DNA from: an uncultured Caldithrix sp.
GTDB taxonomy: Bacteria; Electryoneota; AABM5-125-24; Hatepunaeales; Hatepunaeaceae
Assembly: GCA_964355675.1 (NCBI GenBank)
Contig: CAYHEC010000010.1
Span: forward strand, 41,160-105,159
DNA length: 64,000 bases
Direction: 5' to 3'
The first letter of the stretch is position 1; each line of letters starts with the position of its first letter. The notes beneath the pieces were generated by a model. It was given only the letters and a program-made list of their open reading frames with translations, was not told where the DNA came from and searched no databases. Both the position numbers and the translations under genes were made by a program. This document shows positions 35,007 through 57,502 of the stretch, one piece after another.

Positions 35007-35827
35007 TCCAATTCCTTCAGGATGACCTTTAATTCTTCCTCAGTTGGGCTCCTGTGGTGCCAAGTGAAGCCGTTGTTTTCCAAAGTCTTCGATCCTTTCC
35101 CTTTTACCGTGCGAGCGATTACCATTGAAGGTCTATCCGTTTTACAGTTTGAAATAGTTCTAAAGGTTTGTTTCAGCTCATTGATATCATGGCCGTTGAC
35201 ATCATAGACTTTCCAGCCAAACGCTGACCATTTTTCGACCGGGTTAGTAATTGGCAAGCACCTGCTGGTTGATTCATTCAAATCTAAAATTCCAATAAAA
35301 TTATTCAATTTACAATTTGCGGCAACCATAGCGGTTTCCCAGATAGTTCCTTCGTTACACTCTCCATCACCGATCAGAGAATAAACATAATTGGGTTTAC
35401 ATTTTATTTTCATGCTTAACGCGATACCGGCAGCGAATGGAAAACCGTGTCCGAGGGATCCAGTGGAAGCCTCGACTCCCGGAACTTTGTTTCTATCGGG
35501 GTGTCCGCCGAGTGGGCTGTCATATTTACCGAAAGTGATAAGATCATTCTCGGAAATATATCCTGCCTTTTGTAATACCGCATACAAAGCAACGGAAGCA
35601 TGACCTTTACTGAGAATAAAATAATCTCTATCCTCCCAATCCGGGTTTTCCGGGTGATATTTCAGCACATCCTTATAGAGAACAGTCAGTATATCCACGA
35701 TCGAGAAAGAGCTGGGGATATGACCTTCTTTTGCTTCAAAACACAATTTCAGAATTGATTTTCTGATTTCGATTGGATTTATCATTTTAGAGCAATATTT
35801 GGAAAACCGTGAGCGTTTACGGACCAT
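35003..35827 (-). CDS. Transketolase, N-terminal TPP-binding subunit
   Basis: 'GHASVALYAVL' and TPP-binding 'GDGECNEG' motif; overlaps partner subunit by 4 nt. Confidence 0.85.
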   Translation of the reverse strand: MVRKRSRFSKYCSKMINPIEIRKSILKLCFEAKEGHIPSSFSIVDILTVLYKDVLKYHPENPDWEDRDYFILSKGHASVALYAVLQKAGYISENDLITFGKYDSPLGGHPDRNKVPGVEASTGSLGHGFPFAAGIALSMKIKCKPNYVYSLIGDGECNEGTIWETAMVAANCKLNNFIGILDLNESTSRCLPITNPVEKWSAFGWKVYDVNGHDINELKQTFRTISNCKTDRPSMVIARTVKGKGSKTLENNGFTWHHRSPTEEELKVILKELE

Positions 35828-35839: not shown

Positions 35840-36657
35840 TTAAGATAATTTGCTTTTAAATCTTTCCATTTCAATAAATATTGAATCTCTACCATTATCA
35901 TAAACCATTAAATAATTTAAGCTTGATAAGTAATTATTGATATTATGATAGTTATAATGGACCGTCTCCACAATCAGAAGACTTGGACGGTATTTTCCCC
36001 AATCATTACTCTTCAATACTTCTAATTCATATCCTTCAACATCTATTGACATAAAATCAATAGTGTCAGATGGTTTCAAGTATTTTTCTAAAATATTAGA
36101 TAAAGGTGCCACTTCGACTTCTATTGTTTTTATGGCGGAAGCTTTATGCCAGATAAATGATTTTCTGCCATTTTATTATTGAAAGAAGATCCGTTACTAA
36201 ATCCTTCTATCATATAAAAATCAGCTTTGCCCAACATTGGACCAATGCCAATGTTCAGATTAATATCTTCTGGCCTAGCCTCAACTAGTTTATTAAAAGG
36301 ACTTAATTGTGGTTCAATGTTAATTCCTCGCCAGCCTTTTAAGTAGAACCTAGTAGCATGAGAAGGAAACTCGTTGGGATCATTGGCTCCTATCTCAACA
36401 TAATACCCATGACTCTTAAAATCTAGGAGAAAATCTATCAACAGATCCTCATGATCATAACCATCATAAGATCCGAAAACCTTATGTATGAATTTTTTGC
36501 CTCTCCCAGAAAAGTCATTATAGTTCGGATCATTGCATTCCTCAGCGTTTTTTGCCAGAATGTTTTTTGCCAGAATAGACTTTATTTTCCTCAAGATTCT
36601 GACAATTAGAGGTGGTATAAAATCTAATAGTGTAATGTGTTTGTTAAAGATCTTCAT
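35840..36657 (-). pseudogene. FkbM-family methyltransferase interrupted by a frameshift (two ORFs 36130..36657 and 35840..36112)
   Basis: Upstream ORF carries 'YYVEIGANDPNEF' (SAM-binding), downstream ORF carries 'IDFMSIDVEGYELEVL' (FkbM C-terminal motif); the two are in different frames, junction near the A5 run around 36127-36131. Confidence 0.55.
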
Positions 36658-36792: not shown

Positions 36793-38067
36793 TTATTTTA
36801 AACTTAAGCTCCAATTTGTCCCACCCAGAACACAGCTAAAATGCCTCGCTACTGCGCCATAGCGTGCCATTGTGGAACCGGTTTCTATGATGTTAAAACT
36901 TGAAACATTTTTACGTGTATCAATGCTTAGCTTGTTTGGATTGTGTGCAGAAATATAAACAGTATACATGTCAGGGACAAGAAAGTTCTCCCTTATCCGA
37001 ATGGTTGCTTGATACAAACCGGGCTTAAGTTCCACAAACGCCTTATTATTTCCATCAGATAAACTACTAAATAATACATTAACATCATTAGAATTAGATA
37101 ACATAAAAGTGATTTCAGTATCTGTAGTGTGGCGCAATACTCTGAATTCAAGTCCAATCATAAACGGATTCAGAACATCTATATCCGCGCTCAGATTACC
37201 TTGATGGTCAGTTATCCAAACTTTTGTAAAGGATACGTTGGCGTCCAATTGAGGAACCAACGTAACAACTTTAGTTGTTTCTACTCTTTTATCAGTTATA
37301 TACTGGCTTATAATATCAGATACTACTCCAGTACCAGATATTCTGCCATTATCAAGTAATATCGCTTGAGTACACAATGACCGTACCGCTCCCATATTAT
37401 GACTCACAAACAGCACCGTCCGACCCTCGTGCGCGACTTCTCCCATTTTCCCAAGGCATTTTTTCTGAAACTCAACATCGCCAACGGCGAGTACTTCGTC
37501 AATAACAAGTATCTCCGGGTCCAGATGCGCCGCCACCGCGAATGCCAGGCGCACCTTCATGCCCGACGAATACCGCTTGACAGGAGTATCGATAAATTGC
37601 TCAACGCCGGAAAAGTCAACAATCTCATCGAACTTTCTGGTCACTTCAGCTTTTGTCATTCCAAGGATCGCGCCATTCAGAAATACATTCTCCCTACCCG
37701 TCAATTCCGGGTGAAATCCAGTCCCGACCTCAAGCAAAGCCCCGATTCGTCCTTTTATCTTGATCTCACCTGAGGTTGGCGCAGTTATATGTGAGATGAT
37801 TTTTAATAATGTTGACTTACCAGAACCATTCTTGCCGATAATGCCGAGTACCTCACCTTGATTAACTTCAAAGTTTATATCGCGCAACGCCCAGATGTAT
37901 TCGCCGCTCTTGTTGCCATGATCCATCTCGCCGATTTTTAGCAGTGGGTCAGGTTTGCCTCTCGCTCTCGCCCACCAGCGACTAAGGTCTCCTGACAATG
38001 TACCTCCCCCGATAAGTCCCAATTTATAGAACTTAGAGAGGTTTTCGACCTTGATAACGACACTCAT
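36793..38067 (-). CDS. ABC transporter ATP-binding protein for glycan export (Wzt/TagH/KpsT-like) with C-terminal extra domain
   Basis: Walker A 'GKNGSGKST', signature 'YSSGMKVRLAFA', Walker B 'ILVIDEV'; ~180-aa C-terminal extension as in Wzt carbohydrate-binding domains. Confidence 0.9.
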   Translation of the reverse strand: MSVVIKVENLSKFYKLGLIGGGTLSGDLSRWWARARGKPDPLLKIGEMDHGNKSGEYIWALRDINFEVNQGEVLGIIGKNGSGKSTLLKIISHITAPTSGEIKIKGRIGALLEVGTGFHPELTGRENVFLNGAILGMTKAEVTRKFDEIVDFSGVEQFIDTPVKRYSSGMKVRLAFAVAAHLDPEILVIDEVLAVGDVEFQKKCLGKMGEVAHEGRTVLFVSHNMGAVRSLCTQAILLDNGRISGTGVVSDIISQYITDKRVETTKVVTLVPQLDANVSFTKVWITDHQGNLSADIDVLNPFMIGLEFRVLRHTTDTEITFMLSNSNDVNVLFSSLSDGNNKAFVELKPGLYQATIRIRENFLVPDMYTVYISAHNPNKLSIDTRKNVSSFNIIETGSTMARYGAVARHFSCVLGGTNWSLSLK

Positions 38068-38107
38068 TGCGCGCTCAACAGGTCGATGATTGCAGTTACT
38101 ATGCCGC

Positions 38108-38959
38108 TCAAATTGTGTCCTCGAAAGTCCGTTCGACGCGGTTAAACAACGAGATTCCGATCAGAAGGATAGTGATAGACATCACAGCGCTATAGGAAAG
38201 ATAAATTAAATCAGCTTTACCGGCTCCTAAGAAGGCATAACGGAAAGTCTCGATCACTGGCGCCATCGGGTTGGCAACAACAATCCACTTGTATCGTTCG
38301 GGAATGCTCGACACCGGATAAATCACTGGCGTCGCATACATGAACAGGTGAATTCCAAAAGTCACCAAAAATCTTAAATCGCGGTAACGAATCGTCAACG
38401 AGGAGACGATTATGCCTAAGCCCAATCCGAGACTACCCATGATGATCAGAAGAACGGGAGTAAGTAAAATCCAAATATTCGGAGATACGCTGGCTCCGTT
38501 GATCAGAAAATAGATGAGAAAACCAATGAAAAAAAGGAACTGAATTCCGAAGGCTATAATATTAGAAATTACAATACTTACAGGCATTACGAGCCGTGGG
38601 AAATATACTTTGCCGAAGATGGCGGAATTTGCAAGAAATGTTTCCGCTGATTTGGTGATAACATTTGAGAAGTATGTCCAGGCGACCGTGCCAGACATAT
38701 AGAAAAGGAAGGGCGGCAGTCCATCAGTGGATAACTTCGCAACCTTGCCGAATATAATAGTGAACACTACGGACGTCAACAACGGCTGAATTATGTGCCA
38801 GAGCGGGCCGAGAATTGTCTGTTTGTACTGCGCCACAAAGTCGCGCCGCACAAATAGCGATACCAAATCTCTGTAGCGCCACAATTCTTTAAGACGAAGA
38901 TCAAACCACTTGCCCCGTGGCTGAATTACCGTCGTCCACTCAGTCTGGGTTTCCATCAT
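38108..38959 (-). CDS. ABC-2 type permease for glycan export (Wzm/TagG/KpsM-like)
   Basis: 283 aa, six hydrophobic segments, 'RDFVAQYKQTILGPLWHIIQP' N-terminal motif typical of ABC-2 permeases; adjacent to the ATPase. Confidence 0.85.
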   Translation of the reverse strand: MMETQTEWTTVIQPRGKWFDLRLKELWRYRDLVSLFVRRDFVAQYKQTILGPLWHIIQPLLTSVVFTIIFGKVAKLSTDGLPPFLFYMSGTVAWTYFSNVITKSAETFLANSAIFGKVYFPRLVMPVSIVISNIIAFGIQFLFFIGFLIYFLINGASVSPNIWILLTPVLLIIMGSLGLGLGIIVSSLTIRYRDLRFLVTFGIHLFMYATPVIYPVSSIPERYKWIVVANPMAPVIETFRYAFLGAGKADLIYLSYSAVMSITILLIGISLFNRVERTFEDTI

Positions 38960-39088
38960 TTAGTTAATGTCGTGATTATGTCGTTTTCGAGATCCGAACC
39001 AATTTCATCGATTTTGTTCGCCCGGAAAACAGGCATCGTTATCTCGTGATTAGAACGCAAATTATGATTTCCTCCGATGCTATGCAAA

Positions 39089-39970
39089 TTAGTTTTCCAC
39101 ATCATAAGTACTCAGTATATTTTCTAATTCTGATAGAAGTTGTCGTAATGAATCGAGAGAGTCATAACGAAGACTTATGCGGTTTTTAAAGATGTGGACA
39201 GAATCATTAGCTTTGGCGAATTGTTTTAGTTCGGGCAGGACATCCCATTTCTCGTTTGGGTTCCTCTTTTGTTTGCGACGGATAATTTCGTCATCGATCA
39301 ATTGCTTGAATTGCTCCAAGTCAAGGCTGGCGCCTCTCAAGATCAGCTTTGCCCTAAGGCGCTCAATAGGAATCTTCGATAATGCCAGCGCTTTCTTCAA
39401 TGAAAGGGTCTTGTCGGCGATTGCCTTTTTCAGGTCCGCTGGTAGAAGCAAGAGTGATAAGCGATCATTCACAAAAGACGCAGACTTACCGATTTTGGTG
39501 GCAATATCCCGGTAGGTTAATCCAAGTTGTTCGATTAATTGCTTGATGGCTCTGGCTTCCTCCATCGGTTCCAAGTCAGAGCGTTGCAAGTTCTCTATCA
39601 GGGAATATAGAAGGAAATCTTCTTGTGACAGATCTAACACAATACAAGGAACAGCTGTCAATTCTGCGCGCTTGGCCGCTTCCAATCTACGGTGACCAGC
39701 AATCAGAATATAGTGCTTGCGACCTTTGCGAATAACCAGCAAAGGCTCAAGGACCCCAACGTCTTTTATTGAGGCGGTGAGCTCATCAAGCGAGCGTTGG
39801 TCGTTCTCAACCCGTAGTGGAAATGAATTGGGGTAAAGAAATCCAATCGGCATCAGTTGGGCGTTCTGAAGAGGTTCAGGTTTGTTCGATGGAAGAGTTT
39901 GACCGAACGCTTCATGAAGTTCAGGCGCCTGCAGACCTATTGCAGGATTGTTATCAGGGTCGTAAGGCAA
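39089..39970 (-). CDS. ParB/Spo0J-family protein (ParB N-terminal CTP-binding domain + HTH), orphan
   Basis: 'LEPLLVIRKGRKHYILIAGHRRLEAAKRA' (GxRR box) and HTH-like 'LTYRDIATKIGKSASFVNDRLSLL'; no ParA gene in the window. Confidence 0.8.
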   Translation of the reverse strand: MPYDPDNNPAIGLQAPELHEAFGQTLPSNKPEPLQNAQLMPIGFLYPNSFPLRVENDQRSLDELTASIKDVGVLEPLLVIRKGRKHYILIAGHRRLEAAKRAELTAVPCIVLDLSQEDFLLYSLIENLQRSDLEPMEEARAIKQLIEQLGLTYRDIATKIGKSASFVNDRLSLLLLPADLKKAIADKTLSLKKALALSKIPIERLRAKLILRGASLDLEQFKQLIDDEIIRRKQKRNPNEKWDVLPELKQFAKANDSVHIFKNRISLRYDSLDSLRQLLSELENILSTYDVEN

Positions 39971-40302
39971 CGTTTTTGATCAGTCCGAAAGTCGATTGTG
40001 AAATCCAACTGTTTCATTGCTACAAATATCACATACTTATCGTTTGAATAAATATGTATCACAATGATGCAGTTTTCAAAAGTGCGAACACTCAAAGTAA
40101 CTATTTTCATTGTTAAAGTCAAGATTAGCATGGAAATTGTAAGATGTGGCGTCTTTTTTGATTGGTCTATCCTTGATAGATGTCTGTTGAAAAAGTCCTC
40201 GCAAGACCAAGCGGACGCGGATGTCCGCTTGAACACATCCGAGTGAATATCGATGATTTAAAGAACCGATACTAACGAAGTCGAAATTTTGTGCCTTACT
40301 AA

Positions 40303-40331
40303 TTGACATGTACTTGACATTAAGGAATATA
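40303..40331 (+). promoter_or_regulatory. Candidate sigma70-like promoter upstream of the giant gene
   Basis: TTGACA (40303-40308), 17-nt spacer, AATATA (40326-40331); about 90 nt upstream of the ATG at 40419; consensus of this lineage unknown. Confidence 0.2.
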
Positions 40332-40418
40332 GAGACTAACTTGAATATGCCGTCACAAAGTAGCCATAAACCAATTCTATTATAAGTTTTACGAAACAGT
40401 CACCATAAGGTCAAACTA

Positions 40419-43400
40419 ATGAAAACGATCACTGGAATGCTACTCGCAGTAGTTCTTGTTTTGGTGGTGCCGCAGTTCGGTTTCGCCAGAATAATCAACG
40501 TCCCCGAAGAAAATCAGACTATTCAGGCGGCTATTAATACTGCAGAAGCAGGAGATACCGTTCTGGTTCAGCCGGGAATATACGGTGAAAATATTCTTTT
40601 TAACGGAATCGATATTGTCGTTGGCAGTCTGCTCCTGACGACCGGCGATCATGCTTATATCGACTCGACAATTATTGATGGAAACGCCAGCGCATCGGTT
40701 GTTAGAATCCGTACTGGTGAAACTGATGCTACTGTATTAACAGGCTTTACGATTATTAACGGCAGAGCAAATTATGGCGGCGGAGTTTATATTAACGCCG
40801 CCAGCCCGACACTCGATCATCTCATTATAACTCGAAATCACGCGATCAGAGACGGCGGCGGGATTTACTGCACGCATAACGCCAATCCCATTTTTAAACA
40901 TTTGACCGTGTCAGCCGATACTGCCGAACGGAGTAACGGCGGTCTGTTTACCTTTGATAATTCTTCAGCCACTATAATCAACTCCATCTTCAGGAGTAAC
41001 ATCCCTATCGGAACTCCTGCAGGACAAACGATTACCTTTTCCAACATTCAAAATGGTTACGCCGGACAGGGCAATATAAACAGTAATCCCCTCTTCGTCG
41101 ATCCGGGAAATGGTAACTTCCATCTGCAAGAAAATTCGCCGTGTATCGACGCTGGCGATCCGAATTCGCCTCCCGATCAAGATGAGTCTCGCGCTGATAT
41201 AGGGGCTTTTTATTTTGACCAGACTCCCTATCCGCGTATAGTTGCCTCGCATGACTCATTGGACTTCGGAGGCGTTCTTCCCGGTGCAGAACTTGCCAGA
41301 ATAATTACAATTATTAATCAAGGCGACGCCGACCTAATCGTTCAGCATCCCACGACCGACGGCGAACCTTTCCATGCCGATCCGGAGGATTGGGAGTCCG
41401 TTACTCTCGAACCGTTAGATACGCTCGAAGCCGAAGTTTTTTTCGCTCCAACCGAAATCGGGGATTTCGTGGGGCATTTCATCATCGAATCAAATGACCC
41501 TGATAACGAGACTCTTGATATAATACTCATCGGAAGTGGTGCTGTCCCGATCATAGCCGTAGCTTCTGATTCGCTTGATTTTGGTGTTGTTTTAATTGAT
41601 AATAGCTCCGAACTGCCTCTCGTCGTGAGCAATAATGGGGGAGCCGATCTGACAATAAGCGACGCCAGCGTTCAAGGAGATAACTACTCGATTGATTTTG
41701 GTGGTGAGTTTACCGTTCATCCCGATGAATCTGCTGAGATAATTGTCACATTTTCCCCGTCAGAAGCAGGCGGCTTCGATGGGGAAGTCACGATCACTTC
41801 TGATGATCCAGAGAATGCCGAAATGACTGTGGCCCTGGTCGGAGTCGGCAGAGAGCGAACCATCACAGAATTAGGGGCAATCGATACGCCGGGACAAGCG
41901 CTGGGAGTTGCTATCGTTGGATCTCTTGCACTCTTGTCCGACGGTCAGGGCGGTCTTCGAATAATCGATTATTCCGATCCTGCTAATCCTGCCGAAATTA
42001 GCTCCATCGAAACGCCGGGCAACGCCAGAGATATTGTTGTAGTAAATGGTTTAGCTTTTATCGCTGATGAGGAAAGCGGGCTGAGGATGATTGATTTCTC
42101 CGATCCCGAGCATCCTGCCGAAGTCTGGACGTTCGACACGCCCGGTCGGGCTTATGGAGTTGCGGTTGTTGGTTCGTTTGCTTATGTAGCCGATTACGAG
42201 GGAGGGCTCCGTATCGTAGATATTTCTGACCCCGAATCTCCCCATGAAGTAGGGGCATCCGAAACGAACGGCAATGCTCGAGCGGTAGCCATACTCGGTG
42301 ATTATGCGTACATAGCCGCGGAAGAGGGTGGCTTGGAAATAATCGATATTTCTGATCCGGAAAGTCCCCACCGAATTGGTTCTGTCGAAACTCCGGGGAG
42401 TGCCTATGGAATTATAGCTCGGGGAGGTTATGTTTATGTGGCCGATGGAGATAATGGTCTTTGTGTGATCGATGTTTCCACACCTGCTAACCCATCAGTA
42501 ATTACCAGCTACAACACGCCGGGGATTGCGTCCAACGTCACATCGACAGGTGAATTGATCTACGTTGCTGATTCGACCACTGGTATTCAAGTGATTAATA
42601 TAGCTGATCTTGAAAATATTGAAACGGTTGGTACATTCAACACGCATGCCGAAGCTTGTGATATTGCCATTCTTGGCGACTACTGTTTCGTCGCCGATGG
42701 AGAAAGCGGACTTCATGTATTGGACGTCTCGGAGATTGCTCAATACCCGGTTGTTTCCGTCACCCCAGAGGCGCTGAGGTTTCAGCGTACCGTTACCGGC
42801 TATAGTTCAGATATCACGTTGACAATCCATAATCGCGGTAATTGTACGTTGAATATTTTCGCGGTAGCGGTCGAGGGAAATTACTTCGAAAGTGAAATCG
42901 CAAATCCGGTGGCGATTGAGCCAATGGAGAGCTATGATTTGGCAGTTACTTTCACTCCGGAAGAAGCCGGCGATTTTGCTGGAACGCTAACAATTATTTC
43001 GGATGATCCATACCAACCTCACAAGCAAATCTCGTTGTCGGGAAGCGGGCTGGTCTTTGATCTTATCGAAGAGACCGGTTCACTCTTAGAGTTTTTCGCC
43101 GGAACTGAAGATGGATGCGCGTATGACAACTGGGTAAGCCATATCTCCGAGGGGGTTGCCCGAGACGGTTACAACGAATACTGTCCTCCGGAACTTGACC
43201 GGCAGACGAACGGCTTCGGCTCATTTACGATAATCGATAGTCTCGAAAATCCGGACGAAATAACCGCGAGTTGGTATGAGATATTTTCCAGCCTGTATCA
43301 TGGGGACATCGAAACCGCACGCGTAACCCTTGCTCTATCAAGTTTCAGCGATAAGTATCAGATAGTTCGTCTCGAAGATGGTGAGAAGAACTATGTAATC

Positions 43401-46400
43401 TTGAGAGAAAACCTGAATAATGAATACTTTGATGACAATGGTACTCAGGACGCCGCCGATGACGTTCGCGGGTCGTTCGACTTGGGATGGGGGTTGTTTG
43501 TCTTCGATCTTGACCCTTTCACGCCGGATGTTATCATCGAAGTACCTCACCCGGAAGACGATTTTCTTGCTCCTCCATCTGGGATCGATGCATTTTTTAC
43601 GATTGGCGCGAGAGCGCTCTTCGTAGCAGGAGCCGGTCGTGAAGTCAGCTGGACCGGTGAGGGAAACTATACAAATCTGAAGTCATTTTCAGATCCTACA
43701 CGCATTGAGGGTAGTGCTTTCAATCAAGCACATAAAGCGGGGGTGGACTTGATTGATCAGGAATTTGTCATCCAGATTCACAGTTACGACAGCGAATCGC
43801 ATCCCACTTTGATGCCCGCCGAACTTTCCACACGGCTCGACTACTATCCTAATCGCCCAGTTCTGGATTTTGAGAATCACTTCGATATCGTAAGTCTCAC
43901 GCCGGAGATTCCGGTTCCCGCCAATTCAACTGGACATGAAAACCACGATTCGCTACGGGTCGATGATTTCTATGCTGTCTGGTATGATATCGACGTCTTA
44001 GGTACTTATCGCTATCACAATCGCTTGGATATATCGAACGACGTGGTGATGTTCGCATCGAGCATGAATGAACAGATGCTTTACTCGATGGCTGGCCATG
44101 ATACTCTGCGGGACGATGAAAAATGGCTTCATGTCGAACAGGACGAATTTCCAAATGTCATTACTGAGGATATTCTAAACTATTATAGCGCTGGCGGAGC
44201 TATGACCTACCATAATTTCAGCCCAGCAGTTCAGTTTTACCGCCCGGTGTACACGGCGGTAAGAAACTATTACCATCATAGAACCCTGCATAACGTTCCT
44301 GATGATTATCAGACAATCCAGGCCGCTGTTGACGCTTCAGTCAGTGGAGACACAGTGCTGGTTCAGCCCGGGACTTACGTTGAAACCGTCAACTTCAAGG
44401 GCAAAGACATCACGGTGGGAAGCCTCTTCCTGAACACCGGAGACCAAGCCTACATAGAATCAACTATCATAGATGGCAACCGCAACGGCAGTGTGGTGAG
44501 ATTTGACAGTGGTGAGACCAATAATGCCTTGTTGACCGGATTCACTATTCGAAACGGTTCCGGTTCCATCGATGCTGAAAATGACATCAGCGGCGGGGGG
44601 ATACATTGCCACAACGCATCGCCCCGTCTGAATTATCTCAAAATTGTTAACAATAATGCCTGGTATGCCGCGGGTATTTATTGCGAATTAGGTTCCGATG
44701 CGATTATCGATCATTGTCTGATTACTAACAACGTCGCCGCTATTGCTGGTGGTGGTATGGATTGCTATGCCGCCAGCCCCACCATGAGCAACTGTACCAT
44801 TGCGGATAATCAGGCAATCAGGGGAGGCGGGCTCTACCTATTCGATGGCTGTAATCTGACTATTACGAACAGTATCTTCTGGAATAACGCTCCGCAAGAA
44901 CTTCTTTATTCACTTAGCGGAGTTCCCGATACGGTTATATTTCAGTACACTGACATTATGGGTGGTGAGCGTCGAGTCAACACTCACCGTAACGGCGCTG
45001 TCATCTGGGGAGAAGGCAACATCGATCAGGATCCCCGATTTGTTGCCCCTGAGGAGGGTGACTACTCTCTAAGCGAAGGAAGCCCCTGCCAAGACGCCGG
45101 AAATCCTGGCGATACACGTGATCCCGATGACACGTGGATCGATATGGGAGCGCTCTATTCTCCTTATGAGCGAGACAATCAGCCGCGCATGGTTGTTAAT
45201 TCTAATAGATTTGGCTTCGGAACTGTCGAAGTCGGGCAGAACCTTCACTTGATATTGCAGATTCACAACACGGGCTATGCCGCTCTTACGGTTTCAGAGA
45301 TGAGGCTATCAGGAGATCATCCCGACGACTTCAGCGCAGACTTCGGACAGGAGTTAACGGTCGATCCCGGTCAGATTCGCAACGTCACATTGACATTTGC
45401 CCCCGGCGATGCAGGTCGTCGAGAAGCCAATATGGTCGCCACAAGTAATGATCCGGTGCAGGCAGAGACTCAAATGGCACTTGGTGGATTCGGATTAATC
45501 CGTGGAGATCGTCATTTATGGATTGTTCCGGATGACCTTGAAAGAATTCAGGAAGCTATTGATATATCAGTCGATGGCGATACTATTCTCGTTAGATCGG
45601 GTGTTTACCAGGAGAATATCGATTTTTCGGGCAAAGCGCTTGTAGTAGGTAGCTTCTTCCTGACCGATCGTGACCCGGAATTGATCACAAATACCGTTAT
45701 CCGAGGCGACAACAGCGGCGGAGTGGTTTCTTTCATCAGCGGAGAGGATACGAACTCTGTATTATCAGGATTCACAATAACGGGTGGGCAAGATGGAGTT
45801 TACAGCGCGTCTTCAAATCCAACTATAAGTTATTGTGTTATAAATAGTAACGCGGCAGTGAACACCGGCGGCGCGGGATTGTACTGCCGCGGTGGCGCTT
45901 CGCCAAGCCTTCTTAACTGTACTTTGGTTGATAATTCAGCTCGATGGGGCGGTGGTATGTACATTCGAGAAGGAAGTGGCGTCACCTTGACCAACTGTAT
46001 TGTTTGGGCAAATGATCCAAACACAGTTTACTCATCGGGTAACGGCGTAAGAAATCGACTTTCGGTGGATCACTCGAATATTGAGGGTGATCGACAGGGG
46101 GTTGTTACCAACAATAATTGTCAGGTCACCTGGGGCGAAGGCAATATCAACACAGATCCTCTGTTTGTTGATTTGGGTAATGGAGACTTCCGTCTGGGAG
46201 CCAACAGTCCCTGCGTCGATGCAGGCAATGCCAATTCGCCGCTCGATGCCGACAGCACCCGCGCCGATCTTGGCGCTCTTTACTATGACCATCGGACGCC
46301 TCGTATCGCTGTGGAGCCTGCCGAGCTCGATTTTGAACTGACAAGAATAGGCGAATTGTCAGAGAAAGAGATAGTTATCTTTAACAGGGGTGTTGCTGAC

Positions 46401-48908
46401 CTGACCGTTACAAATCTCCCCATAGAAGGCGAATACTTCTCTTGCGATTTCAGGCAGGAACTCGTGATCCACCCGGATGACTCTACCGTTGTCACTGTAG
46501 CCTTCATACCTGAGGTGCAAGGCGATTTCGAAGCTGTTCTGACGATTTTGTCCGATGACCCTAACAATTGGGCGATTCCTGTTCGTCTTCATGGTGTTAG
46601 TGGGAGCCAACCACCGGAAATCATCAGCGAGATAGGAGATCTGTCCTACCCAGAAGACTCTGGTCCCTGGACAATCGCCGATCTCGATACGGTCTTCAAT
46701 GATCCGGAGGGAGATAACCTGACTTTCAGCGCTATAGCGCCTGACCCGTTGACGGTGTTAATTGGGAACGAAGATCATGTCTTGGTTCTTGAAGCGCCCG
46801 CCAACTTTAACACCGAAGGACTCGAAATTCAAGTTACCGCATCGGATAGTATTGGCGGAAGACGGGTGATGATAATAAGGACTTTACGCGGAACCGCTAA
46901 TCAAATGGTACGGCTTACAGATTTAGGCTCAGTACAGCCGAAAGATGTCGGCAGTACCAATGAAGGAATTAATTCCTCATCGACCCCATTCAAAATTCAC
47001 CAGATCAGTCGCGATGGATCAGCAGAGGATATATTTACGCTTGTTATAGAACCAATCAACGATGAACCAGTGTGGGTGAATTACCCGCAAGAGATCATCC
47101 GAGTCGAGAGTGGTGGCGTTATCGAGTTTGTAGTAGTAACGGAAGACGTCGATGGTGATCGGTTGAATTTGAGGATGATTGGCAACGATCTCCCGGATGA
47201 AGTCCAGTTTGTCGTAACTGAAAATGGCCGAGGTCGCTTAAATTGGCAAACCACAATTGAAACGGTTGGTCATTTTGAAGTAGTCCTGTCGGTTTCTGAC
47301 GGTGCGGTTTCGTCGGAGATCACTGTAAACGTGATTGTCATCCACCCGCCTCAGCACTTCACGGAATTTGACCAGACAGAGCAAAGCCACAATTTGCATG
47401 TAACAGGCGTCTCAATCAACGGTGACCCGGTCTCTGCTGGCTGGGAAGTCGGCGTCTTTACGCCTGCCGGTGTTTTGGCAGGTGGGGACGCTTGGACGGA
47501 AGTTGAGATGGATCTGCCAGTCTGGGGCGCTGATGACAACCATCAGGATTATTTCCACGAAGGCGAGACAATGAGTCTCAAGTTGTGGGACTACCAAGCT
47601 GATGCGGAGTGGGATGGTGGGGCAGTGGTCGAAGAAGGTGAAATGAATTGGGTGAATAACGGCAATACCGTTCTTACTGTCGAAAGCAACAGCCTAAAAA
47701 CATTGGAAGTAGCCATGCGTCTGGGCTGGAAACTGATTTCGGTCAACGTGATCCCATCCGATCAGGATTTCTGGGCTGGCGACCCCGGTCCTGAAATTGT
47801 TCCGATGATGTCCCAGCTCCGCCGTCCGAACAACGGAGCACATCATCTAATTCTGATGAAGGATGAGCGTGGGCGGTTCTATATACCGGAACGTGGTTTC
47901 GGCAATATGTCTTATTGGAATCTCGCAGAGAGCTATCAGGTTCGTATCGACTCCGCTATGTCGGCATTCTGGACAGGAACGCCGATCAATCCACAAGCCG
48001 ATGTTCCGATTACCCGTGGTTGGAATTATATTGCTTACTTTCCGGATTATCAACTTTCTGCGTACAGCAGAGATGGTTGCTATGTGTTATCGCCGATCAT
48101 CGATCACGTTCTCCTAGCCAAGGACGGCCTTGGTAACTTTATGATCCCGTCACGCGGATTCTTCAGCAATATGCCGCCATGGCGGGAAGGACAGGGCTAC
48201 CAGATCAATGTCGATCAAGATGTTGTCCTGAATTACCCACAAGCACAGAATCAGGCCGCGGCATTGTCAGTCGATCCTGAGTCTGTCAAGGGTCGTTGGG
48301 CCGATGTACCTTCGACCGGTGCAAACATGAGCGTGTTGGTCACCAAGGTATCGGGCGTCGATCTTTCGACTTCCGACCAGGTTGCCGCGTTCAGCCCGTC
48401 CGGTCTTATGGTTGGCGTAGGCCGAGTAATCGATGGACAGATTGGTATTGCAGTCTGGGGCGACGACGCCTCAACCCAAGCGGTGGACGGCCTGAAAGAC
48501 GGCGAAGCGTTCACGCTGAAGTTGTGGAATGCCGCTGAAGACGTAGTTGTCGATCTTAGTTCGCGGGTTATCGAAGGCGACCGCCTTGTCTATTTGACAG
48601 ACGGTTTCACGGTAATCGACGCGTCTGTAACGACAGCACTTCCGACCGAGTTCTATCTCAGTCAGAACTACCCGAACCCGTTCAATGCAGTGACTCGTGT
48701 AGCCTTCGGCTTGCCGGAAGCATCACGTGTGACGGTTCGCGTGTTCGATCTGTCTGGACGTGAAGTATCGACGTTGGTGAGTGGTGAGCTTCAGGCTGGC
48801 CATCACAGTGTCGTGTTGGATGGCGAATCGATGGTATCGGGCGTTTACATCGTCAAGATGGAAGCGACGAACTTCAGCGCCGTTCGTAAAGTAATGCTCG
48901 TGAAGTAA
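40419..48908 (+). CDS. Giant secreted multidomain surface protein: signal peptide, three parallel beta-helix (Pmp/pectin-lyase-like) modules, Ig-like domains, LVIVD beta-propeller, T9SS C-terminal sorting domain
   Basis: 2829-aa uninterrupted ORF; signal peptide 'MKTITGMLLAVVLVLVVPQFGFA'; module 'VP..QTIQAA...GDTVLVQPG.Y.E...F.G.DI.VGS' occurs three times; GGG[IV]Y / F..N repeats; C-terminal 'NYPNPFNAVTRVAFGLPEASRVTVRVFDLSGREV...SGVYIVKMEATNFSAVRKVMLVK'. Confidence 0.85.
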   Translation: MKTITGMLLAVVLVLVVPQFGFARIINVPEENQTIQAAINTAEAGDTVLVQPGIYGENILFNGIDIVVGSLLLTTGDHAYIDSTIIDGNASASVVRIRTGETDATVLTGFTIINGRANYGGGVYINAASPTLDHLIITRNHAIRDGGGIYCTHNANPIFKHLTVSADTAERSNGGLFTFDNSSATIINSIFRSNIPIGTPAGQTITFSNIQNGYAGQGNINSNPLFVDPGNGNFHLQENSPCIDAGDPNSPPDQDESRADIGAFYFDQTPYPRIVASHDSLDFGGVLPGAELARIITIINQGDADLIVQHPTTDGEPFHADPEDWESVTLEPLDTLEAEVFFAPTEIGDFVGHFIIESNDPDNETLDIILIGSGAVPIIAVASDSLDFGVVLIDNSSELPLVVSNNGGADLTISDASVQGDNYSIDFGGEFTVHPDESAEIIVTFSPSEAGGFDGEVTITSDDPENAEMTVALVGVGRERTITELGAIDTPGQALGVAIVGSLALLSDGQGGLRIIDYSDPANPAEISSIETPGNARDIVVVNGLAFIADEESGLRMIDFSDPEHPAEVWTFDTPGRAYGVAVVGSFAYVADYEGGLRIVDISDPESPHEVGASETNGNARAVAILGDYAYIAAEEGGLEIIDISDPESPHRIGSVETPGSAYGIIARGGYVYVADGDNGLCVIDVSTPANPSVITSYNTPGIASNVTSTGELIYVADSTTGIQVINIADLENIETVGTFNTHAEACDIAILGDYCFVADGESGLHVLDVSEIAQYPVVSVTPEALRFQRTVTGYSSDITLTIHNRGNCTLNIFAVAVEGNYFESEIANPVAIEPMESYDLAVTFTPEEAGDFAGTLTIISDDPYQPHKQISLSGSGLVFDLIEETGSLLEFFAGTEDGCAYDNWVSHISEGVARDGYNEYCPPELDRQTNGFGSFTIIDSLENPDEITASWYEIFSSLYHGDIETARVTLALSSFSDKYQIVRLEDGEKNYVILRENLNNEYFDDNGTQDAADDVRGSFDLGWGLFVFDLDPFTPDVIIEVPHPEDDFLAPPSGIDAFFTIGARALFVAGAGREVSWTGEGNYTNLKSFSDPTRIEGSAFNQAHKAGVDLIDQEFVIQIHSYDSESHPTLMPAELSTRLDYYPNRPVLDFENHFDIVSLTPEIPVPANSTGHENHDSLRVDDFYAVWYDIDVLGTYRYHNRLDISNDVVMFASSMNEQMLYSMAGHDTLRDDEKWLHVEQDEFPNVITEDILNYYSAGGAMTYHNFSPAVQFYRPVYTAVRNYYHHRTLHNVPDDYQTIQAAVDASVSGDTVLVQPGTYVETVNFKGKDITVGSLFLNTGDQAYIESTIIDGNRNGSVVRFDSGETNNALLTGFTIRNGSGSIDAENDISGGGIHCHNASPRLNYLKIVNNNAWYAAGIYCELGSDAIIDHCLITNNVAAIAGGGMDCYAASPTMSNCTIADNQAIRGGGLYLFDGCNLTITNSIFWNNAPQELLYSLSGVPDTVIFQYTDIMGGERRVNTHRNGAVIWGEGNIDQDPRFVAPEEGDYSLSEGSPCQDAGNPGDTRDPDDTWIDMGALYSPYERDNQPRMVVNSNRFGFGTVEVGQNLHLILQIHNTGYAALTVSEMRLSGDHPDDFSADFGQELTVDPGQIRNVTLTFAPGDAGRREANMVATSNDPVQAETQMALGGFGLIRGDRHLWIVPDDLERIQEAIDISVDGDTILVRSGVYQENIDFSGKALVVGSFFLTDRDPELITNTVIRGDNSGGVVSFISGEDTNSVLSGFTITGGQDGVYSASSNPTISYCVINSNAAVNTGGAGLYCRGGASPSLLNCTLVDNSARWGGGMYIREGSGVTLTNCIVWANDPNTVYSSGNGVRNRLSVDHSNIEGDRQGVVTNNNCQVTWGEGNINTDPLFVDLGNGDFRLGANSPCVDAGNANSPLDADSTRADLGALYYDHRTPRIAVEPAELDFELTRIGELSEKEIVIFNRGVADLTVTNLPIEGEYFSCDFRQELVIHPDDSTVVTVAFIPEVQGDFEAVLTILSDDPNNWAIPVRLHGVSGSQPPEIISEIGDLSYPEDSGPWTIADLDTVFNDPEGDNLTFSAIAPDPLTVLIGNEDHVLVLEAPANFNTEGLEIQVTASDSIGGRRVMIIRTLRGTANQMVRLTDLGSVQPKDVGSTNEGINSSSTPFKIHQISRDGSAEDIFTLVIEPINDEPVWVNYPQEIIRVESGGVIEFVVVTEDVDGDRLNLRMIGNDLPDEVQFVVTENGRGRLNWQTTIETVGHFEVVLSVSDGAVSSEITVNVIVIHPPQHFTEFDQTEQSHNLHVTGVSINGDPVSAGWEVGVFTPAGVLAGGDAWTEVEMDLPVWGADDNHQDYFHEGETMSLKLWDYQADAEWDGGAVVEEGEMNWVNNGNTVLTVESNSLKTLEVAMRLGWKLISVNVIPSDQDFWAGDPGPEIVPMMSQLRRPNNGAHHLILMKDERGRFYIPERGFGNMSYWNLAESYQVRIDSAMSAFWTGTPINPQADVPITRGWNYIAYFPDYQLSAYSRDGCYVLSPIIDHVLLAKDGLGNFMIPSRGFFSNMPPWREGQGYQINVDQDVVLNYPQAQNQAAALSVDPESVKGRWADVPSTGANMSVLVTKVSGVDLSTSDQVAAFSPSGLMVGVGRVIDGQIGIAVWGDDASTQAVDGLKDGEAFTLKLWNAAEDVVVDLSSRVIEGDRLVYLTDGFTVIDASVTTALPTEFYLSQNYPNPFNAVTRVAFGLPEASRVTVRVFDLSGREVSTLVSGELQAGHHSVVLDGESMVSGVYIVKMEATNFSAVRKVMLVK
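41880..42735 (+). repeat. Seven tandem LVIVD-type repeats (beta-propeller) within the giant protein
   Basis: Recurring ~40-aa unit 'TPG.A.GVA..G..AY.AD...GL.I.D.SDP..P' seen seven times. Confidence 0.7.
48651..48905 (+). other. T9SS (Por secretion system) C-terminal sorting domain of the giant protein
   Basis: Final ~85 aa begin 'FYLSQNYPNPFNAVT' and end 'KVMLVK', matching the conserved type-A CTD pattern. Confidence 0.8.
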
Positions 48909-48929
48909 AGAAGTAGTAGCTCAAGCAGT

Positions 48930-48951
48930 GGGGCGGATTGCAATCCGCCCC
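48930..48951. terminator. GC-rich hairpin between convergent genes (candidate bidirectional terminator)
   Basis: GGGGCGGAT-TGCA-ATCCGCCCC, 9-bp perfect stem with 4-nt loop, 22 nt after the giant gene stop; no clean U-tract. Confidence 0.4.
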
Positions 48952-48988
48952 TACGGCAATTCAATATTCTATCGAATTCAACTTAATA

Positions 48989-50485
48989 TTAGAAATTATG
49001 GGAAATCATTAGCTGGTGAAATCCGCCTCCATAGGGAGCGCTGGCTCCTCGAGTCGTTGGCGCAGGCGACGCCGCGGGTAAACTGCGACGCCAGGTTTTT
49101 ACCGGGATTAATTGTGTGAATTGGTAGCTGACCCCTAATCCAATTAGAGTAGTGGAAATCTCAAGCTGTGGAATGCATCCCAAAATTCGGCGAACCGGAA
49201 GTTCGGAGTGTTGCAAATCATCTTGACCGAAGATCAGGAATTCAGGTCGCCAATGTTCGAGCGTAGCTTTTGGCCGAACATCGAACAGATGCGTTCCGAA
49301 CGACCATCTGAAAATATCGTTGCCTGCTTCAGATTTAAATCTGCTGAAGTGGGCTAAATAAAGTCTCCAAAGCGTCCCTTCAGAAGAGGTAATGAAGTAT
49401 CGCCTCATGCCGAGTAAATCAATAAATCCACTGGTGAAGGGCCAGAACTCTATGTGTCCCCGGCTTGCCGCGTCCCATTGAAAATACTCCAGTTCACCCT
49501 TCATCGACCGCGACGCCAATTTAGATAACTCACTATCAAACCCGGCAAAAATAGTTCGGACGTCAGTATCGAAACGGGTGATCTTGGCAAAGGATGACCC
49601 TCCCTCCAGTCCGCGAGCCTGAAGGCGCGACACATGCCCGCGACTCCCGACCCAAAACAAGTGACCTTCCTTCCCATATTCGATTGCCGCCCGATAATTT
49701 TTCACGATTCCAGTCGGTTCAAAGTTTGGAATAGGGGACATTTTATCAGGTGATCGAAGGCTACTCTGACTATATGAGGCGACGGCTTTAAAACCTCTCA
49801 GCTTGGGTGTGCGCAGAGAAATGCCATAAGTATCGTAGGATAGTGGTAGCTCGACTGCGGCGTTCTCTTCCTGCCAATCTCCTGACAGCCTCCATAAATC
49901 ACTCTGCCGCCGCCACCTGAATGTTACCCCACCGTCGCGATATGCCAACAACCTGCCGGCAATATCGAAACCAGCCGGATTGCTATAATTGTTGACGTCG
50001 GACTTTAACGTGACGTCTGCTTCCGCTCGGACAGCTAACTTCGACGTGGCAACACTGCCAGCAATCCCAAGCTTGGCTCCTTCAATATCGATGTGAATGA
50101 TTTGCTGAGCGAGACGTTGTTGGAGTTTCATCGACGTTCGGCTTGCAGAAGTTCCGACTTCGAGAGTCCAATCTGCCATCCCTTTTCTGCTGACAAACGC
50201 CTTCCCAAGAACCCTTCTGCCGAAGGATGCGCTCGGCCTCTCGATAGCGCCTTGACGGTAATAATCTGAATAGGTCGAAAAGAGAGAGAACCCTCCGGTC
50301 AGCCGCGAGCGGCCAACCGGAGGGTCTGTGACATTTGAATTGGGAAGACGATGCAACTCTGCCTCTGTCATCCATACGGATTCGTGTGTGGTCAGCAGGT
50401 AGTCGATGAAGGGATCAATCGTCAATGCTGACAAATTGCTCGCGGTCAAAAGCACCGCACCAAGCGCAATAATCAGCAGTGGCAA
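48989..50485 (-). CDS. Secreted protein, probable outer-membrane beta-barrel, function unknown
   Basis: N-terminal signal-peptide-like 'MPLLIIALGAVLLTASNLSA'; alternating amphipathic strands with many aromatic residues; no catalytic motif. Confidence 0.4.
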   Translation of the reverse strand: MPLLIIALGAVLLTASNLSALTIDPFIDYLLTTHESVWMTEAELHRLPNSNVTDPPVGRSRLTGGFSLFSTYSDYYRQGAIERPSASFGRRVLGKAFVSRKGMADWTLEVGTSASRTSMKLQQRLAQQIIHIDIEGAKLGIAGSVATSKLAVRAEADVTLKSDVNNYSNPAGFDIAGRLLAYRDGGVTFRWRRQSDLWRLSGDWQEENAAVELPLSYDTYGISLRTPKLRGFKAVASYSQSSLRSPDKMSPIPNFEPTGIVKNYRAAIEYGKEGHLFWVGSRGHVSRLQARGLEGGSSFAKITRFDTDVRTIFAGFDSELSKLASRSMKGELEYFQWDAASRGHIEFWPFTSGFIDLLGMRRYFITSSEGTLWRLYLAHFSRFKSEAGNDIFRWSFGTHLFDVRPKATLEHWRPEFLIFGQDDLQHSELPVRRILGCIPQLEISTTLIGLGVSYQFTQLIPVKTWRRSLPAASPAPTTRGASAPYGGGFHQLMISHNF

Positions 50486-50498
50486 TGCCTTAAACAGA

Positions 50499-52118
50499 TC
50501 AGTTTCCCATGCCGAAATCTTTCTGCCAATCTTCCTCAGTAAAACCCATAATCCGCTTCAAACGGCTGTCGGTCATACCGGGCAGAAGTCCACCTACCGT
50601 CGGGTTGGGAAAAATCCACTCAGCATAGCTATTAGCCTGCCAGGTGATATGCGGCGAATACCTCCACTTGGTTGACTCATTATATTGGCAACTTATGTTA
50701 GCCATCACATTTTGAACGCCAGCATCCAACCACCAGCCGTTAAAACTAATACGGATATAGGCATTGGATTTAGAGCTGTATTGCGCCACCCAACGGTCGA
50801 ATTCTATATCCCATGCCGGTGCGGGGAATGATTTTTCCTCACGGTATTCCTGCAATTGACCATTGTCATAATAAGCATAGCGACTCCAATAGTAAACGCC
50901 CGATGTGGGAATTTCTACTCCTGCCACTACCTGAGAGTCGATATAGTGATACTCCGTCTCTGACTCCACCGTGTCGAGGGTGACGCTGTAAGCGGGTAAC
51001 AGGGACTTCAAATCATTGACCGGGTGGTTGAACATTGCCGAAAGAGCGATAGCAAGGTCTTCGTCACCATCGCCAAAATCAACCTTGAATGTCTCTTGTC
51101 CCGTCAGAGCGCGCCGTACACGCGGGATGTAGGCTTTCAGAGAGTCAAGATCGGCGTCGTTATCGTGGTCCAATTTAATCAGGTCATTGTCTTGATCATC
51201 GGTTTCGCTCTCAAGGAAAGCGACGCCGCTTTCTACACTGTTCGCCGCGTCGAGCCAGGCTTGCCCGGCGGCTCCCATACGGATTGCCCCACTGGAGCGA
51301 AGCGCCATAAACGGCGAACCTTGGGTCAGCGCGACCCGCATTGCATTGCCGGTCCAGTCGCCCATATCATAGCTGTAGGCACAAAACTGGTTCAACAGCG
51401 CGAGCTGTACATCGACAGCAGTGATGGCGGCATAGATCTCGGTCAGGTCGAGCTCCAATGCATCTTCGTTGGGATCGCCCTGCATGCGTGGGGTAATCAT
51501 GAACTTGAAGTCAGGATGAGAAGTGATTTTTTTCAGCCTCGCAACGGCCCACTCAAGACGCGGAATCAGTTCGCTTGCCAGCAGATCCTGAAACTCCCCG
51601 ATGGTCGGATCACCCGCGGCGGCCGCTCGACTCATATTGGTTTCCATTCTCAGTACAGCAGAGATGGGCAGAACCGTCTCGGTAAGCCGGAGCGATAGTC
51701 CTGGGCCTGGTCTGGGAGCTCCCGCCATACCCGGTACTTCGAAGAAGGCGCCGCTATCCATAAAAGTCTTGGCGCGATCGAAGAAATCTTGAAAATCATG
51801 ATCCTGACTGATCATAATGATTTCCAGCACCCCTGCTCCAAAGTTGGCGGCTGGATTGGAGTCATCTGCTTCGAGGGCTTTCATATAAGCACTGTAAGGA
51901 CCGGTCAAGTCAACATCATCAGGCTTTTCCGGATTCTGGCCGTTGATTAGATCCATAAGGACGGCTTCAAGCTGAGTGTTGCCAGTCCCGACCCATGCAT
52001 TTGCGGCGGTGGTATCAGTCGGCGTTGAGACAGTTGGATTATCTTCGCCGCATCCAATAGTTAAAGCCATCCCGACGAAGAATACGATTGCGATTGATAA
52101 ACGAGTTATTGCAGACAT
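50499..52118 (-). CDS. Lipoprotein, function unknown
   Basis: Internal Met at 52118 gives 'MSAITRLSIAIVFFVGMALTIGCGEDNP' with lipobox L-T-I-G-C; track ORF extends 52 codons further upstream. Confidence 0.5.
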   Translation of the reverse strand: MSAITRLSIAIVFFVGMALTIGCGEDNPTVSTPTDTTAANAWVGTGNTQLEAVLMDLINGQNPEKPDDVDLTGPYSAYMKALEADDSNPAANFGAGVLEIIMISQDHDFQDFFDRAKTFMDSGAFFEVPGMAGAPRPGPGLSLRLTETVLPISAVLRMETNMSRAAAAGDPTIGEFQDLLASELIPRLEWAVARLKKITSHPDFKFMITPRMQGDPNEDALELDLTEIYAAITAVDVQLALLNQFCAYSYDMGDWTGNAMRVALTQGSPFMALRSSGAIRMGAAGQAWLDAANSVESGVAFLESETDDQDNDLIKLDHDNDADLDSLKAYIPRVRRALTGQETFKVDFGDGDEDLAIALSAMFNHPVNDLKSLLPAYSVTLDTVESETEYHYIDSQVVAGVEIPTSGVYYWSRYAYYDNGQLQEYREEKSFPAPAWDIEFDRWVAQYSSKSNAYIRISFNGWWLDAGVQNVMANISCQYNESTKWRYSPHITWQANSYAEWIFPNPTVGGLLPGMTDSRLKRIMGFTEEDWQKDFGMGN

Positions 52119-52326
52119 TGTTACCTCATGTAATAATTTGCACAAGATTGAGGTGTTTCTGTGATTGGATGTGCGACCAATTTCACAAGATTGCCTATAA
52201 AGGCCACCTCCGACGTTTAATATAAATACAATAGTTGAGGAACTCAAGTTGAAATCAAAAGAATCTAAAAACAAGTTAGTTAAGTGGCGCGATTTATAGT
52301 AATGATCAGGTCAAATTAGTGTAGTA

Positions 52327-52359: not shown

Positions 52360-52378
52360 AGACCGAAACAATACAAAC

Positions 52379-57433: not shown

Positions 57434-57502
57434 GTGCTCGAATGTTCGGCGGCCGTAGGCGTCCGCCTGGACACTTTTTGGCATAAAGTTCGTCTGTGAA
57501 TA

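Follow-up and report, generated by a model that had tools for sequence, protein, structure and literature searches.

ParB proteins follow an established cycle in which a dimer nucleates on a palindrome, closes its N-gate in dependence on cytidine triphosphate (CTP) and slides along the DNA. These ParB-fold CTP switches do more than segregate DNA, as Noc, KorB, VirB and BisD illustrate, and to our knowledge the characterised transcriptional ParB-like clamps are all encoded on a plasmid or an integrative and conjugative element (ICE). KorB (RK2), VirB (Shigella pINV) and BisD (ICEclc) load at a specific site near the genes that they regulate and act at a distance (PMC11790492, PMC10770331, PMC12409273), by silencing in the case of KorB (PMC11790492), anti-silencing in that of VirB (PMC10770331) and long-range activation in that of BisD (PMC12409273). 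Orphan ParBs have been described as a widespread class (PMC12704722). The present analysis concerns one such orphan, a ParB-family gene beside a surface-glycan gene array in 64,000 nucleotides of an uncultured Caldithrix sp. (contig CAYHEC010000010.1; “the window” hereafter denotes this whole 64-kb stretch), together with a 17-bp palindrome 3' of the gene:

39089 to 39970, minus strand: ParB-family gene (parB), 293 aa, TTG start, with a CTPase-fold N-terminal domain, a helix-turn-helix (HTH) and a diverged C-terminal alpha-beta-beta-alpha domain
39015 to 39031: candidate cognate site, TGTTCGCC-C-GGAAAACA, a degenerate copy with one perfect half-site

The model that we favour proposes that the protein is an orphan CTP-switch clamp that would load at its own site and regulate the adjoining glycan operon locally, and we assign this reading as a whole a probability of about 45%.

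The earlier note had placed the gene in the ParB family on account of a GxRR box and an HTH, and this assignment is borne out, as the minus-strand open reading frame (ORF) bears AGHRRLEAAKRA, its product includes the sequence IAGHRRLEAAKRA, and the protein matches Pfam ParB_N (5.9e-19), HTH_ParB (1.4e-16) and NCBIfam TIGR00180 (124.7 bits; cut-off 58.45). The end coordinate given there, 40020, lies about 50 nt too far, the real ORF being 39089-39970. The TTG is the sole ATG, GTG or TTG codon 5' of LPSNKP..NAQL, a stretch conserved among homologues, and independent gene calls (same contig, other assemblies) chose the same start; an ATG at 40017-40015 stands 47 nt upstream of it, out of frame, and is part of a separate 99-aa ORF. 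The nearest solved relatives are M. xanthus ParB (E 2.9e-30), the Spo0J proteins of B. subtilis and T. thermophilus, Noc and Caulobacter ParB, with KorB a distant relative by sequence (E 7.8e-10; KorB Pfam domain 21.3, cut-off 22.3). An AlphaFold (AF2) model built from the alignment of the clade described below (mean predicted local distance difference test score, pLDDT, 82) matched the same solved structures in Foldseek (7BNK, E 5.7e-16), and the KorB-KorA-DNA complex gave a TM-score of 0.76 to it. Residues 122-235 align with the ParB and Noc DNA-binding domains 6S6H and 6Y93, and Box III, ENLQR, is invariant across the clade. Pfam ParB_C (PF23552), which many generic ParBs do match, is not matched by the window protein even at E <= 1 and is never matched by the clade. 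The C-terminus is probably a diverged dimerisation domain, since its last ~46 residues align with canonical ParB_C C-termini in hhalign (probability 64%, E 6.6e-5) and AF2 predicts alpha-beta-beta-alpha at residues 246-292. Judged by its sequence, then, the protein is an orphan of full length within the family of ParB CTP-switch clamps. With chromosomal ParB/Spo0J (M. xanthus 7BNK, B. subtilis 6SDK, Caulobacter 6T1F) it has in common Box I, the GxRR box, ENLQR, the HTH and the probable C-terminal dimerisation domain, at 36-37% identity over about 190 residues. This canonical three-domain architecture, with chromosomal ParBs as the closest solved relatives, favours the main rival explanation, namely that the gene encodes the lineage's centromere-binding or structural maintenance of chromosomes (SMC)-loading ParB, or a paralogue of it. 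ParA would then be missing or encoded at another place, the palindrome would serve as parS and the glycan adjacency would be inherited synteny devoid of regulatory meaning. We consider this somewhat unlikely, and several features of the clade speak against it.

A protein search covering 5.8 billion clusters delimited the clade at 23 sequences (38-100% identity, at least 181 bits), beyond which the next generic ParBs follow abruptly at 129 bits; the C-terminal 104 aa of the window protein found 13 representatives among 1.84 billion. The sole named member comes from a Calditrichota metagenome-assembled genome, and the clade is small, rare and sharply separated, occurring in metagenome bins that resemble Calditrichota or the Fibrobacteres-Chlorobi-Bacteroidetes (FCB) group. 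Twelve distinct clade loci, many of them on short contigs, were compared with 80 generic ParB loci (1.3 Mb) that were among the matches listed in a genome-contig profile scan with the clade alignment; these listed matches comprised unrelated ParBs only and no clade genome, and a metagenome scan with a narrower alignment yielded 3 loci. The earlier description of the gene as an orphan without ParA holds for the window, where the ParA-type deviant Walker A (KGGxGK[ST]) is absent from every ORF and the sole Walker A is that of the Wzt ABC ATPase, and it extends to the clade: a ParA-like ORF within 4 kb accompanies 0/12 clade loci versus 71/80 control ParB loci (p = 8e-10), and the ParA-binding motif [LIFVM]G[KR]G[LIFVM] is present in 0/23 clade proteins versus 43/97 generic hits. 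The clade is without everything that ties a ParB to ParA, and the missing motif argues against a role in chromosome organisation, as does the lack of origin-type neighbours (dnaA, dnaN, gidAB) in the 12 clade loci. However, orphan ParBs are reported to be common in lineages that lost parAB (PMC12704722), as such a role would allow. A PNAS survey supplement gives chromosomal parB in 12/12 species of Calditrichales, a figure that does not distinguish canonical from orphan and is uninformative here.

The residues that read DNA set the clade further apart from chromosomal ParB. Four specificity positions are R173/T179/A184/G201 in ParB and Q/K/K/R in Noc (PMC7383237), and their equivalents in the window protein, in a Caulobacter residue register checked by a constant-offset test, are A164, R170, L175 and K192. 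Among 20 aligned clade proteins, position 173 is never R, 179 is invariant R, 184 is variable and 201 is K or R in 19; at a neighbouring position the clade has an invariant K where the GHAR motif has H. R173 is invariable among parS-specific variants and is required for parS binding (PMC7383237), and because its equivalent is missing in 20/20 aligned proteins the clade is predicted not to read parS. The putative specificity code, x/R/x/K, matches neither the R/T/A/G of ParB nor the Q/K/K/R of Noc. Noc is likewise an orphan ParB paralogue with its own palindrome and no ParA motif, positions 179 and 201 are basic in both, and the Noc model TIGR04285 is the best-scoring NCBIfam model for the window protein; a Noc-like nucleoid occlusion factor therefore has some resemblance in its favour, here at two of the four specificity positions and below in the site. 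It is, however, very improbable, as the score of 146.7 bits falls under the cut-off of 315, the residues are A/R/L/K and not Q/K/K/R (position 173 being A or K in the clade, not Q), and the window protein is without the N-terminal amphipathic helix: clade N-termini are variable, acidic and predicted to be disordered (the first 27 residues of the window protein have pLDDT below 50), unlike a membrane-targeting helix. Further, Noc has been described in Firmicutes only (PMC7383237), to which this lineage does not belong.

The catalytic residues are altered as well. Box II reads GHRR in 22/23 clade proteins where chromosomal ParB has GERR; H93 of the window protein aligns with the catalytic E93 of M. 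xanthus ParB, and P51 with the catalytic Q52 of the QPR motif. At the E93-equivalent position H is found in 19/20 aligned clade proteins, and at the Q52 equivalent Q is retained in 18/20, so that the change from Q to P is particular to the window protein. With Q52A or E93A, M. xanthus ParB keeps its CTP binding and its loading at parS, hydrolyses poorly and remains on the DNA, spreading about 44 and 14 kb, respectively, compared with 3 kb normally (bioRxiv 10.1101/2021.05.05.442810). We file the window protein as an orphan ParB-family protein, and not as a partition ParB, a Noc or a member of the KorB/VirB/BisD group, because the fold and the HTH are present and the ParA motif, a parA neighbour, parS, R173 and the catalytic Glu are all missing. 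In PADLOC it drew merely a weak match to a methyltransferase model, via the ParB_N fold, and no defence-system assignment.

The site that the clade may read instead was sought in a palindrome scan of the flanks of eight clade loci, for which a consensus was derived from 4 loci and then fixed before 4 new loci were fetched. The consensus, TGTYCRCC-N-GGYGRACA, spans 17 bp and lies directly 3' of the gene in 7/12 distinct loci, at these distances from the stop codon:

L094, +17, discovery set: TGTCCACCCGGTGGACA
L009, +29, discovery set: TATTCACCCGGTGAACA
L095, +19, discovery set: AGTCCACCGGGCGGACG
Window, +58 (39015-39031), discovery set: TGTTCGCCCGGAAAACA
L104, +24, new locus, exact match: TGTCCACCGGGTGGACA
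L100, +29, new locus, within the 45-nt gap between parB and DegT: TGTCCGCTTGGCGGACA
L097/L102, +265, new locus, exact match: TGTTCGCCGGGTGAACA
L097/L102, +129, second palindrome: TGTCCACAGCGTGGACA

Three of the 4 new loci carry a palindrome with at most one mismatch within 300 nt of the stop (chance p about 4e-13), and the exact palindrome is absent from all 80 control ParB loci. One strong palindrome is present per long locus, with two in L102. In the window, the site stands 58 nt past the parB stop and 56 nt ahead of the wzm ATG, in a parB-wzm spacer of 129 nt, and is the sole match to the consensus at two or fewer mismatches in 64 kb. Its leave-one-out position weight matrix (PWM) score is 14.3 bits, a value reached or exceeded 7 times across the 1.3 Mb of the control loci and 0.165 times for each shuffled window, and the chance of such a hit inside the 129-nt spacer is roughly 3e-4 to 7e-4. 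It was considered whether the palindrome could be a terminator; however, no T-run follows any copy, no terminator was called, the RNA hairpin is unformed in the window and in L009, and the conservation of T1, G2, T3, C5, C7 and C8 is one of sequence, beyond mere symmetry. For these reasons the palindrome appears to behave as a protein-binding DNA site. That the gene is an orphan ParB with a cognate site of its own is, in our estimation, likely.

The clade palindrome resembles parS (TGTTTCAC-GTGAAACA) in its outer TGT and shares its inner CC/GG core with the Noc-binding site (NBS; TATTTCCC-GGGAAATA; PMC7383237), the latter being the likeness in the site that a Noc-like factor would predict, and this combination of parS-like and NBS-like parts fits the mixed specificity residues of the clade. 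It differs from both in length, 17 bp with an odd central base compared with 16 bp. A cognate site adjoining parB is typical of parS, and chromosomal ParB/Spo0J also have a palindromic site beside their own gene, which favours the chromosome-organisation rival; however, a single site per locus (two in L102), with no cluster, speaks against it. To the codes of ParB and Noc the clade adds a candidate third, compact and testable, comprising a 17-bp odd-spaced palindrome, the residues x/R/x/K and a natural variant of GERR to GHRR.

Several further observations concern the palindrome and its surroundings. A second PWM hit, TGTCCGCCGAGTGGGCT, lies at 35502-35518, inside the gene for the N-terminal transketolase half and 3.5 kb into the operon, with 15.2 bits and one perfect half-site; the 64-kb window thereby holds two hits of at least 14.3 bits, with 0.165 expected. 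A 49-aa ORF at 38956-39105 (minus strand), called by gene finders, contains the palindrome, and its ends overlap parB at the stop (17 nt) and wzm at the ATG (4 nt); it is without homologue evidence, and an equivalent is impossible in the 45-nt gap of L100. In L095 (6573-7396) the ParB homologue is broken into ORFs of 201 aa and 79 aa and its cluster mate P0121 is intact at 274 aa, which suggests a frameshift or decay in that contig, with the palindrome at +19 retained.

What genes the clade accompanies bears on its possible function, and the contexts are as follows:

Window: parB, then wzm/wzt
L005: parB, then DegT, GFO/hexapeptide, UDP-sugar dehydrogenase and 2-epimerase
L100: parB, then DegT and MaoC
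L093: parB, then a CapD-type dehydratase
L009: glycosyltransferase family 4 (GT4), Bac_transf, DegT, Wzi-like and epimerase, then parB
L011: GT2, epimerases, GT4, Bac_transf and Wzi, then parB
L012/L096: parB convergent with a CTP_transf_3 cytidylyltransferase
L094, L095, L099, L102, L104: flanks, often short, without a glycan gene

By Pfam, adjacent glycan genes are found at 6/12 distinct clade loci and at 3/80 control ParB loci (p = 9e-5), and the neighbours vary by locus (wzm/wzt, DegT, CapD, Wzi) among homologues that are 43-57% identical. In the window, the genes concerned are these:

38108 to 38959, minus strand: wzm-like ABC-2 permease, the first glycan gene 3' of parB
36793 to 38067, minus strand: wzt-like ABC ATPase with a Wzt_C glycan-binding domain
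5675 to 36657, minus strand: the remaining co-directional glycan array, GC content 0.37-0.44

The co-directional genes after parB span ~33 kb, reaching about 5.7 kb, and comprise a split FkbM methyltransferase, two transketolase halves, epimerases, DegT, glycosyltransferases of families GT1, GT2, GT4 and GT9, GDP-mannose dehydratase, NeuB, a cytidylyltransferase, UDP-GlcNAc 2-epimerase, an Asn-synthase-type amidotransferase and a Wzy_C protein. The earlier note had made parB the first gene of the minus-strand array. It does head this block, following the intergenic region 39971-40418, but the glycan locus continues beyond it, as minus-strand glycan genes (glycosyltransferase, DegT) resume at 48989-61337, past the giant divergent gene.

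That giant gene belongs to a second recurring group of neighbours, since a cargo protein sorted by the type IX secretion system (T9SS) adjoins clade parB in four loci, in three of them with LVIVD repeats:

Window, 40419 to 48908, plus strand: T9SS cargo protein of 2829 aa with LVIVD repeats, divergent from parB
L005, 4505 to 9439: T9SS cargo
L094, 1 to 2142: T9SS cargo
L095, 2 to 5445: T9SS cargo

L009 and L011, in addition, share Wzi synteny. Together these arrangements suggest an old synteny of cell-surface genes around clade parB, and the recurring LVIVD/T9SS neighbours, as a mark of shared ancestry, are again what the chromosome-organisation rival would lead one to expect; however, the flanks differ among loci, yet glycan genes recur. 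In L005, an ECF (extracytoplasmic function) sigma factor gene stands ahead of the T9SS cargo genes.

The composition of the array raises another possibility, that a partition or regulatory ParB remains here from a plasmid, ICE or genomic island with which the low-GC glycan cluster arrived. The GC content of the array, 0.37-0.44, is below the 0.49-0.52 of its neighbours, the giant gene included, enrichment on mobile elements is described for divergent orphan ParBs (PMC12704722), and the 3' flank of the P0010 ParB holds an IS1595-family transposase in one lake sample (L007, 11015-11956) and a DegT sugar operon in another (L005, 11041 onward), a population-level rearrangement directly at the parB 3' flank. 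However, no integrase, relaxase or conjugation genes occur in any flank, no plasmid or phage record covers at least 80% of the window protein (the generic N-terminal half alone matches, at 48% or less), and both protein and site are conserved across loci with different cargo. A mobile-element origin of this kind is thus improbable.

Within the favoured model of an orphan clamp with a local regulatory role, the ParB dimer would nucleate on the 17-bp palindrome, in the window at 39015-39031 in the parB-wzm spacer. Upon CTP binding the dimer, by analogy with its relatives, would shut into a clamp and slide onto the flanking DNA, which in the window is the entry of the wzm/wzt glycan operon. Hydrolysis is probably slow, as the catalytic base is replaced, and residence of the clamp on the DNA may be long. 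The clamp could then act locally on transcription of the adjoining surface-glycan genes, and not in partition, which is proposed because the site lies at the operon entry and hydrolysis is probably slow, and which seems the most parsimonious reading. Possible modes include a roadblock between the parB promoter and wzm, KorB-like silencing, VirB-like anti-silencing of low-GC DNA or BisD-like long-range activation. The earlier suggestion that the protein may have been co-opted as a local regulator is strengthened by the recurrence of glycan neighbours among homologues of 43-57% identity, but it is not proven, and we put forward regulation of the glycan genes by ParB as a tentative proposal, made by analogy. 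Spreading of hydrolysis-poor ParB (14-44 kb) would, if the M. xanthus variants are a guide, be of the same order as the glycan array. A stronger version, in which a long-lived chromosomal clamp with replaced catalytic residues loads at the 17-bp site, slides over the ~33-kb low-GC glycan operon and sets its expression, is unlikely.

The analogy to KorB, VirB and BisD extends to the ParB fold and the HTH, and the clade palindrome, placed between parB and the next gene (129 nt in the window, 45 nt in L100), may be the counterpart of the KorB-type loading site near promoters. The present case differs in that those proteins are plasmid- or ICE-encoded, whereas the window protein is found in a chromosomal-looking glycan locus without mobile-element genes, and in that they regulate transcription, whereas such a role is putative here; a KorA/TrbA-like partner was not identified for the window protein.

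A number of points weigh against the favoured model. In the protein, two nearly invariant clade positions deviate (P49S, Q51P), and the His in place of the catalytic Glu might still serve as a catalytic base. In the site, the window copy is degenerate, with 2 mismatches and one weak half-site, and is the weakest of the set. Site and protein of the window are the most divergent among those compared. No palindrome was found in the DNA at hand for L005, L011, L012/L096, L093 or L099, and among these five loci an alternative motif was not apparent either, 10-12-mers being shared only at chance number. What points to binding of the palindrome by ParB is their co-location and the precedent of the family, and a site beside its own parB gene is equally expected of a centromere-type ParB. 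As to the neighbourhood, the five loci listed above without a glycan gene, the position of parB at the tail and not the head of the glycan genes in two loci, and the shared ancestry of the loci (LVIVD/T9SS, Wzi), by which the enrichment statistics overstate independence, all reduce the force of the association.

The window protein fits the orphan ParBs surveyed previously, being TIGR00180-positive, of canonical organisation, outside a parAB operon and without the ParA-binding motif; the survey makes no mention of polysaccharide or glycosyl contexts, and the site of the clade is not described there (PMC12704722). A text search of the literature gave no paper linking ParB-like proteins with polysaccharide clusters, and neither the clade nor its 17-bp site, residue code or glycan association appears to have been described before. 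Should the placement by O-antigen/capsule-type clusters be functional, the clade would represent a new regulator class acting on the surface-glycan loci of FCB-group bacteria, which are little studied. Should the long-lived sliding clamp prove true, it would be the first case of a ParB-family protein that regulates a polysaccharide locus on the chromosome at long range, by a code unlike parS and NBS. If the placement is not functional, the clade would still provide a new orthogonal pair of ParB and site, of the kind used in DNA-labelling tools.

The earlier note had also drawn attention to the region upstream of the gene, where GTGAAAT and TGTTTCA were said to resemble the two parS half-sites in swapped order:

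39971 to 40418: intergenic region separating parB from the divergent giant T9SS gene, with promoter-like hexamers for parB at 40079 to 40051
40208 to 40231: GC-rich hairpin, CAAGCGGAC-N6-GTCCGCTTG, a member of a GCGGAC..GTCCGC hairpin family

On an account that takes them as its binding site, ParB would bind just upstream of its own start and regulate from there. Both strings do exist, at 39998-40004 and 40010-40016, but they occur 10 and 7 times, respectively, in the window, and swapped-order pairs of equal quality number 2, compared with 1.67 +/- 1.35 in first-order Markov simulations. The upstream regions of homologous loci do not share them, one of the two overlaps the out-of-frame ATG that had been mistaken for the parB start, and the clade is without the R173 needed for parS recognition (PMC7383237). 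A search of the 64-kb window for canonical 16-bp parS (TGTTTCACGTGAAACA), a check that had been suggested together with this account, gave 0 matches at three or fewer mismatches. We take the two strings to be there by chance, and regulation from these half-sites is hardly credible. A sigma-70-like promoter lies directly upstream of each homologue, even where glycan genes on the same strand precede it.

The GC-rich hairpin belongs to a family, GCGGAC(G)-N4-6-(C)GTCCGC, found in AT-rich intergenic DNA of the window (40208-40231 and 57407-57424) and of L005 (2521-2538 and 9586-9603). An identical 18-mer, GCGGACGAGGGCGTCCGC, occurs in the window and twice in L005, a Calditrichota locus whose ParB is 49% identical, and a hairpin stands 238 nt upstream of parB in the window; in L005 the distance is 418 nt. 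Its half-site, GTCCGCC, is the same as that of the 17-bp palindrome, but in a tail-to-tail arrangement. The hairpin was set aside as a ParB site, as members of the family also lie away from parB, one at window 57407 and two in L005, and it looks like a generic intergenic element, which from its sequence could be a REP-like (repetitive extragenic palindromic) element or a second kind of site. On the minus strand, 40190-40250 forms a hairpin with an outer stem and a U5 run (-23.1 kcal/mol, z = -3.4), which in the folding model looks like an intrinsic terminator inside the divergent promoter region. Together with promoter-like hexamers at 40403 to 40374 (minus strand) it could delimit a predicted small transcript of ~175 nt; Rfam gave no match in 38000-41000.

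Two minor observations concern the wider window. The FkbM methyltransferase of the array lies in two adjacent minus-strand ORFs, an N-terminal half of 175 aa (36130-36657) and a C-terminal half of 90 aa (35840-36112). The split recurs in contigs L001-L003 from other samples and is therefore not a read error, and it is possible that it represents a pseudogene or a frameshift. Finally, where the giant plus-strand gene stops and the minus-strand gene convergent with it ends, the DNA between them holds a hairpin at 48925-48955, GGGGCGGATTGCAATCCGCCCC, probably a terminator shared by the two.

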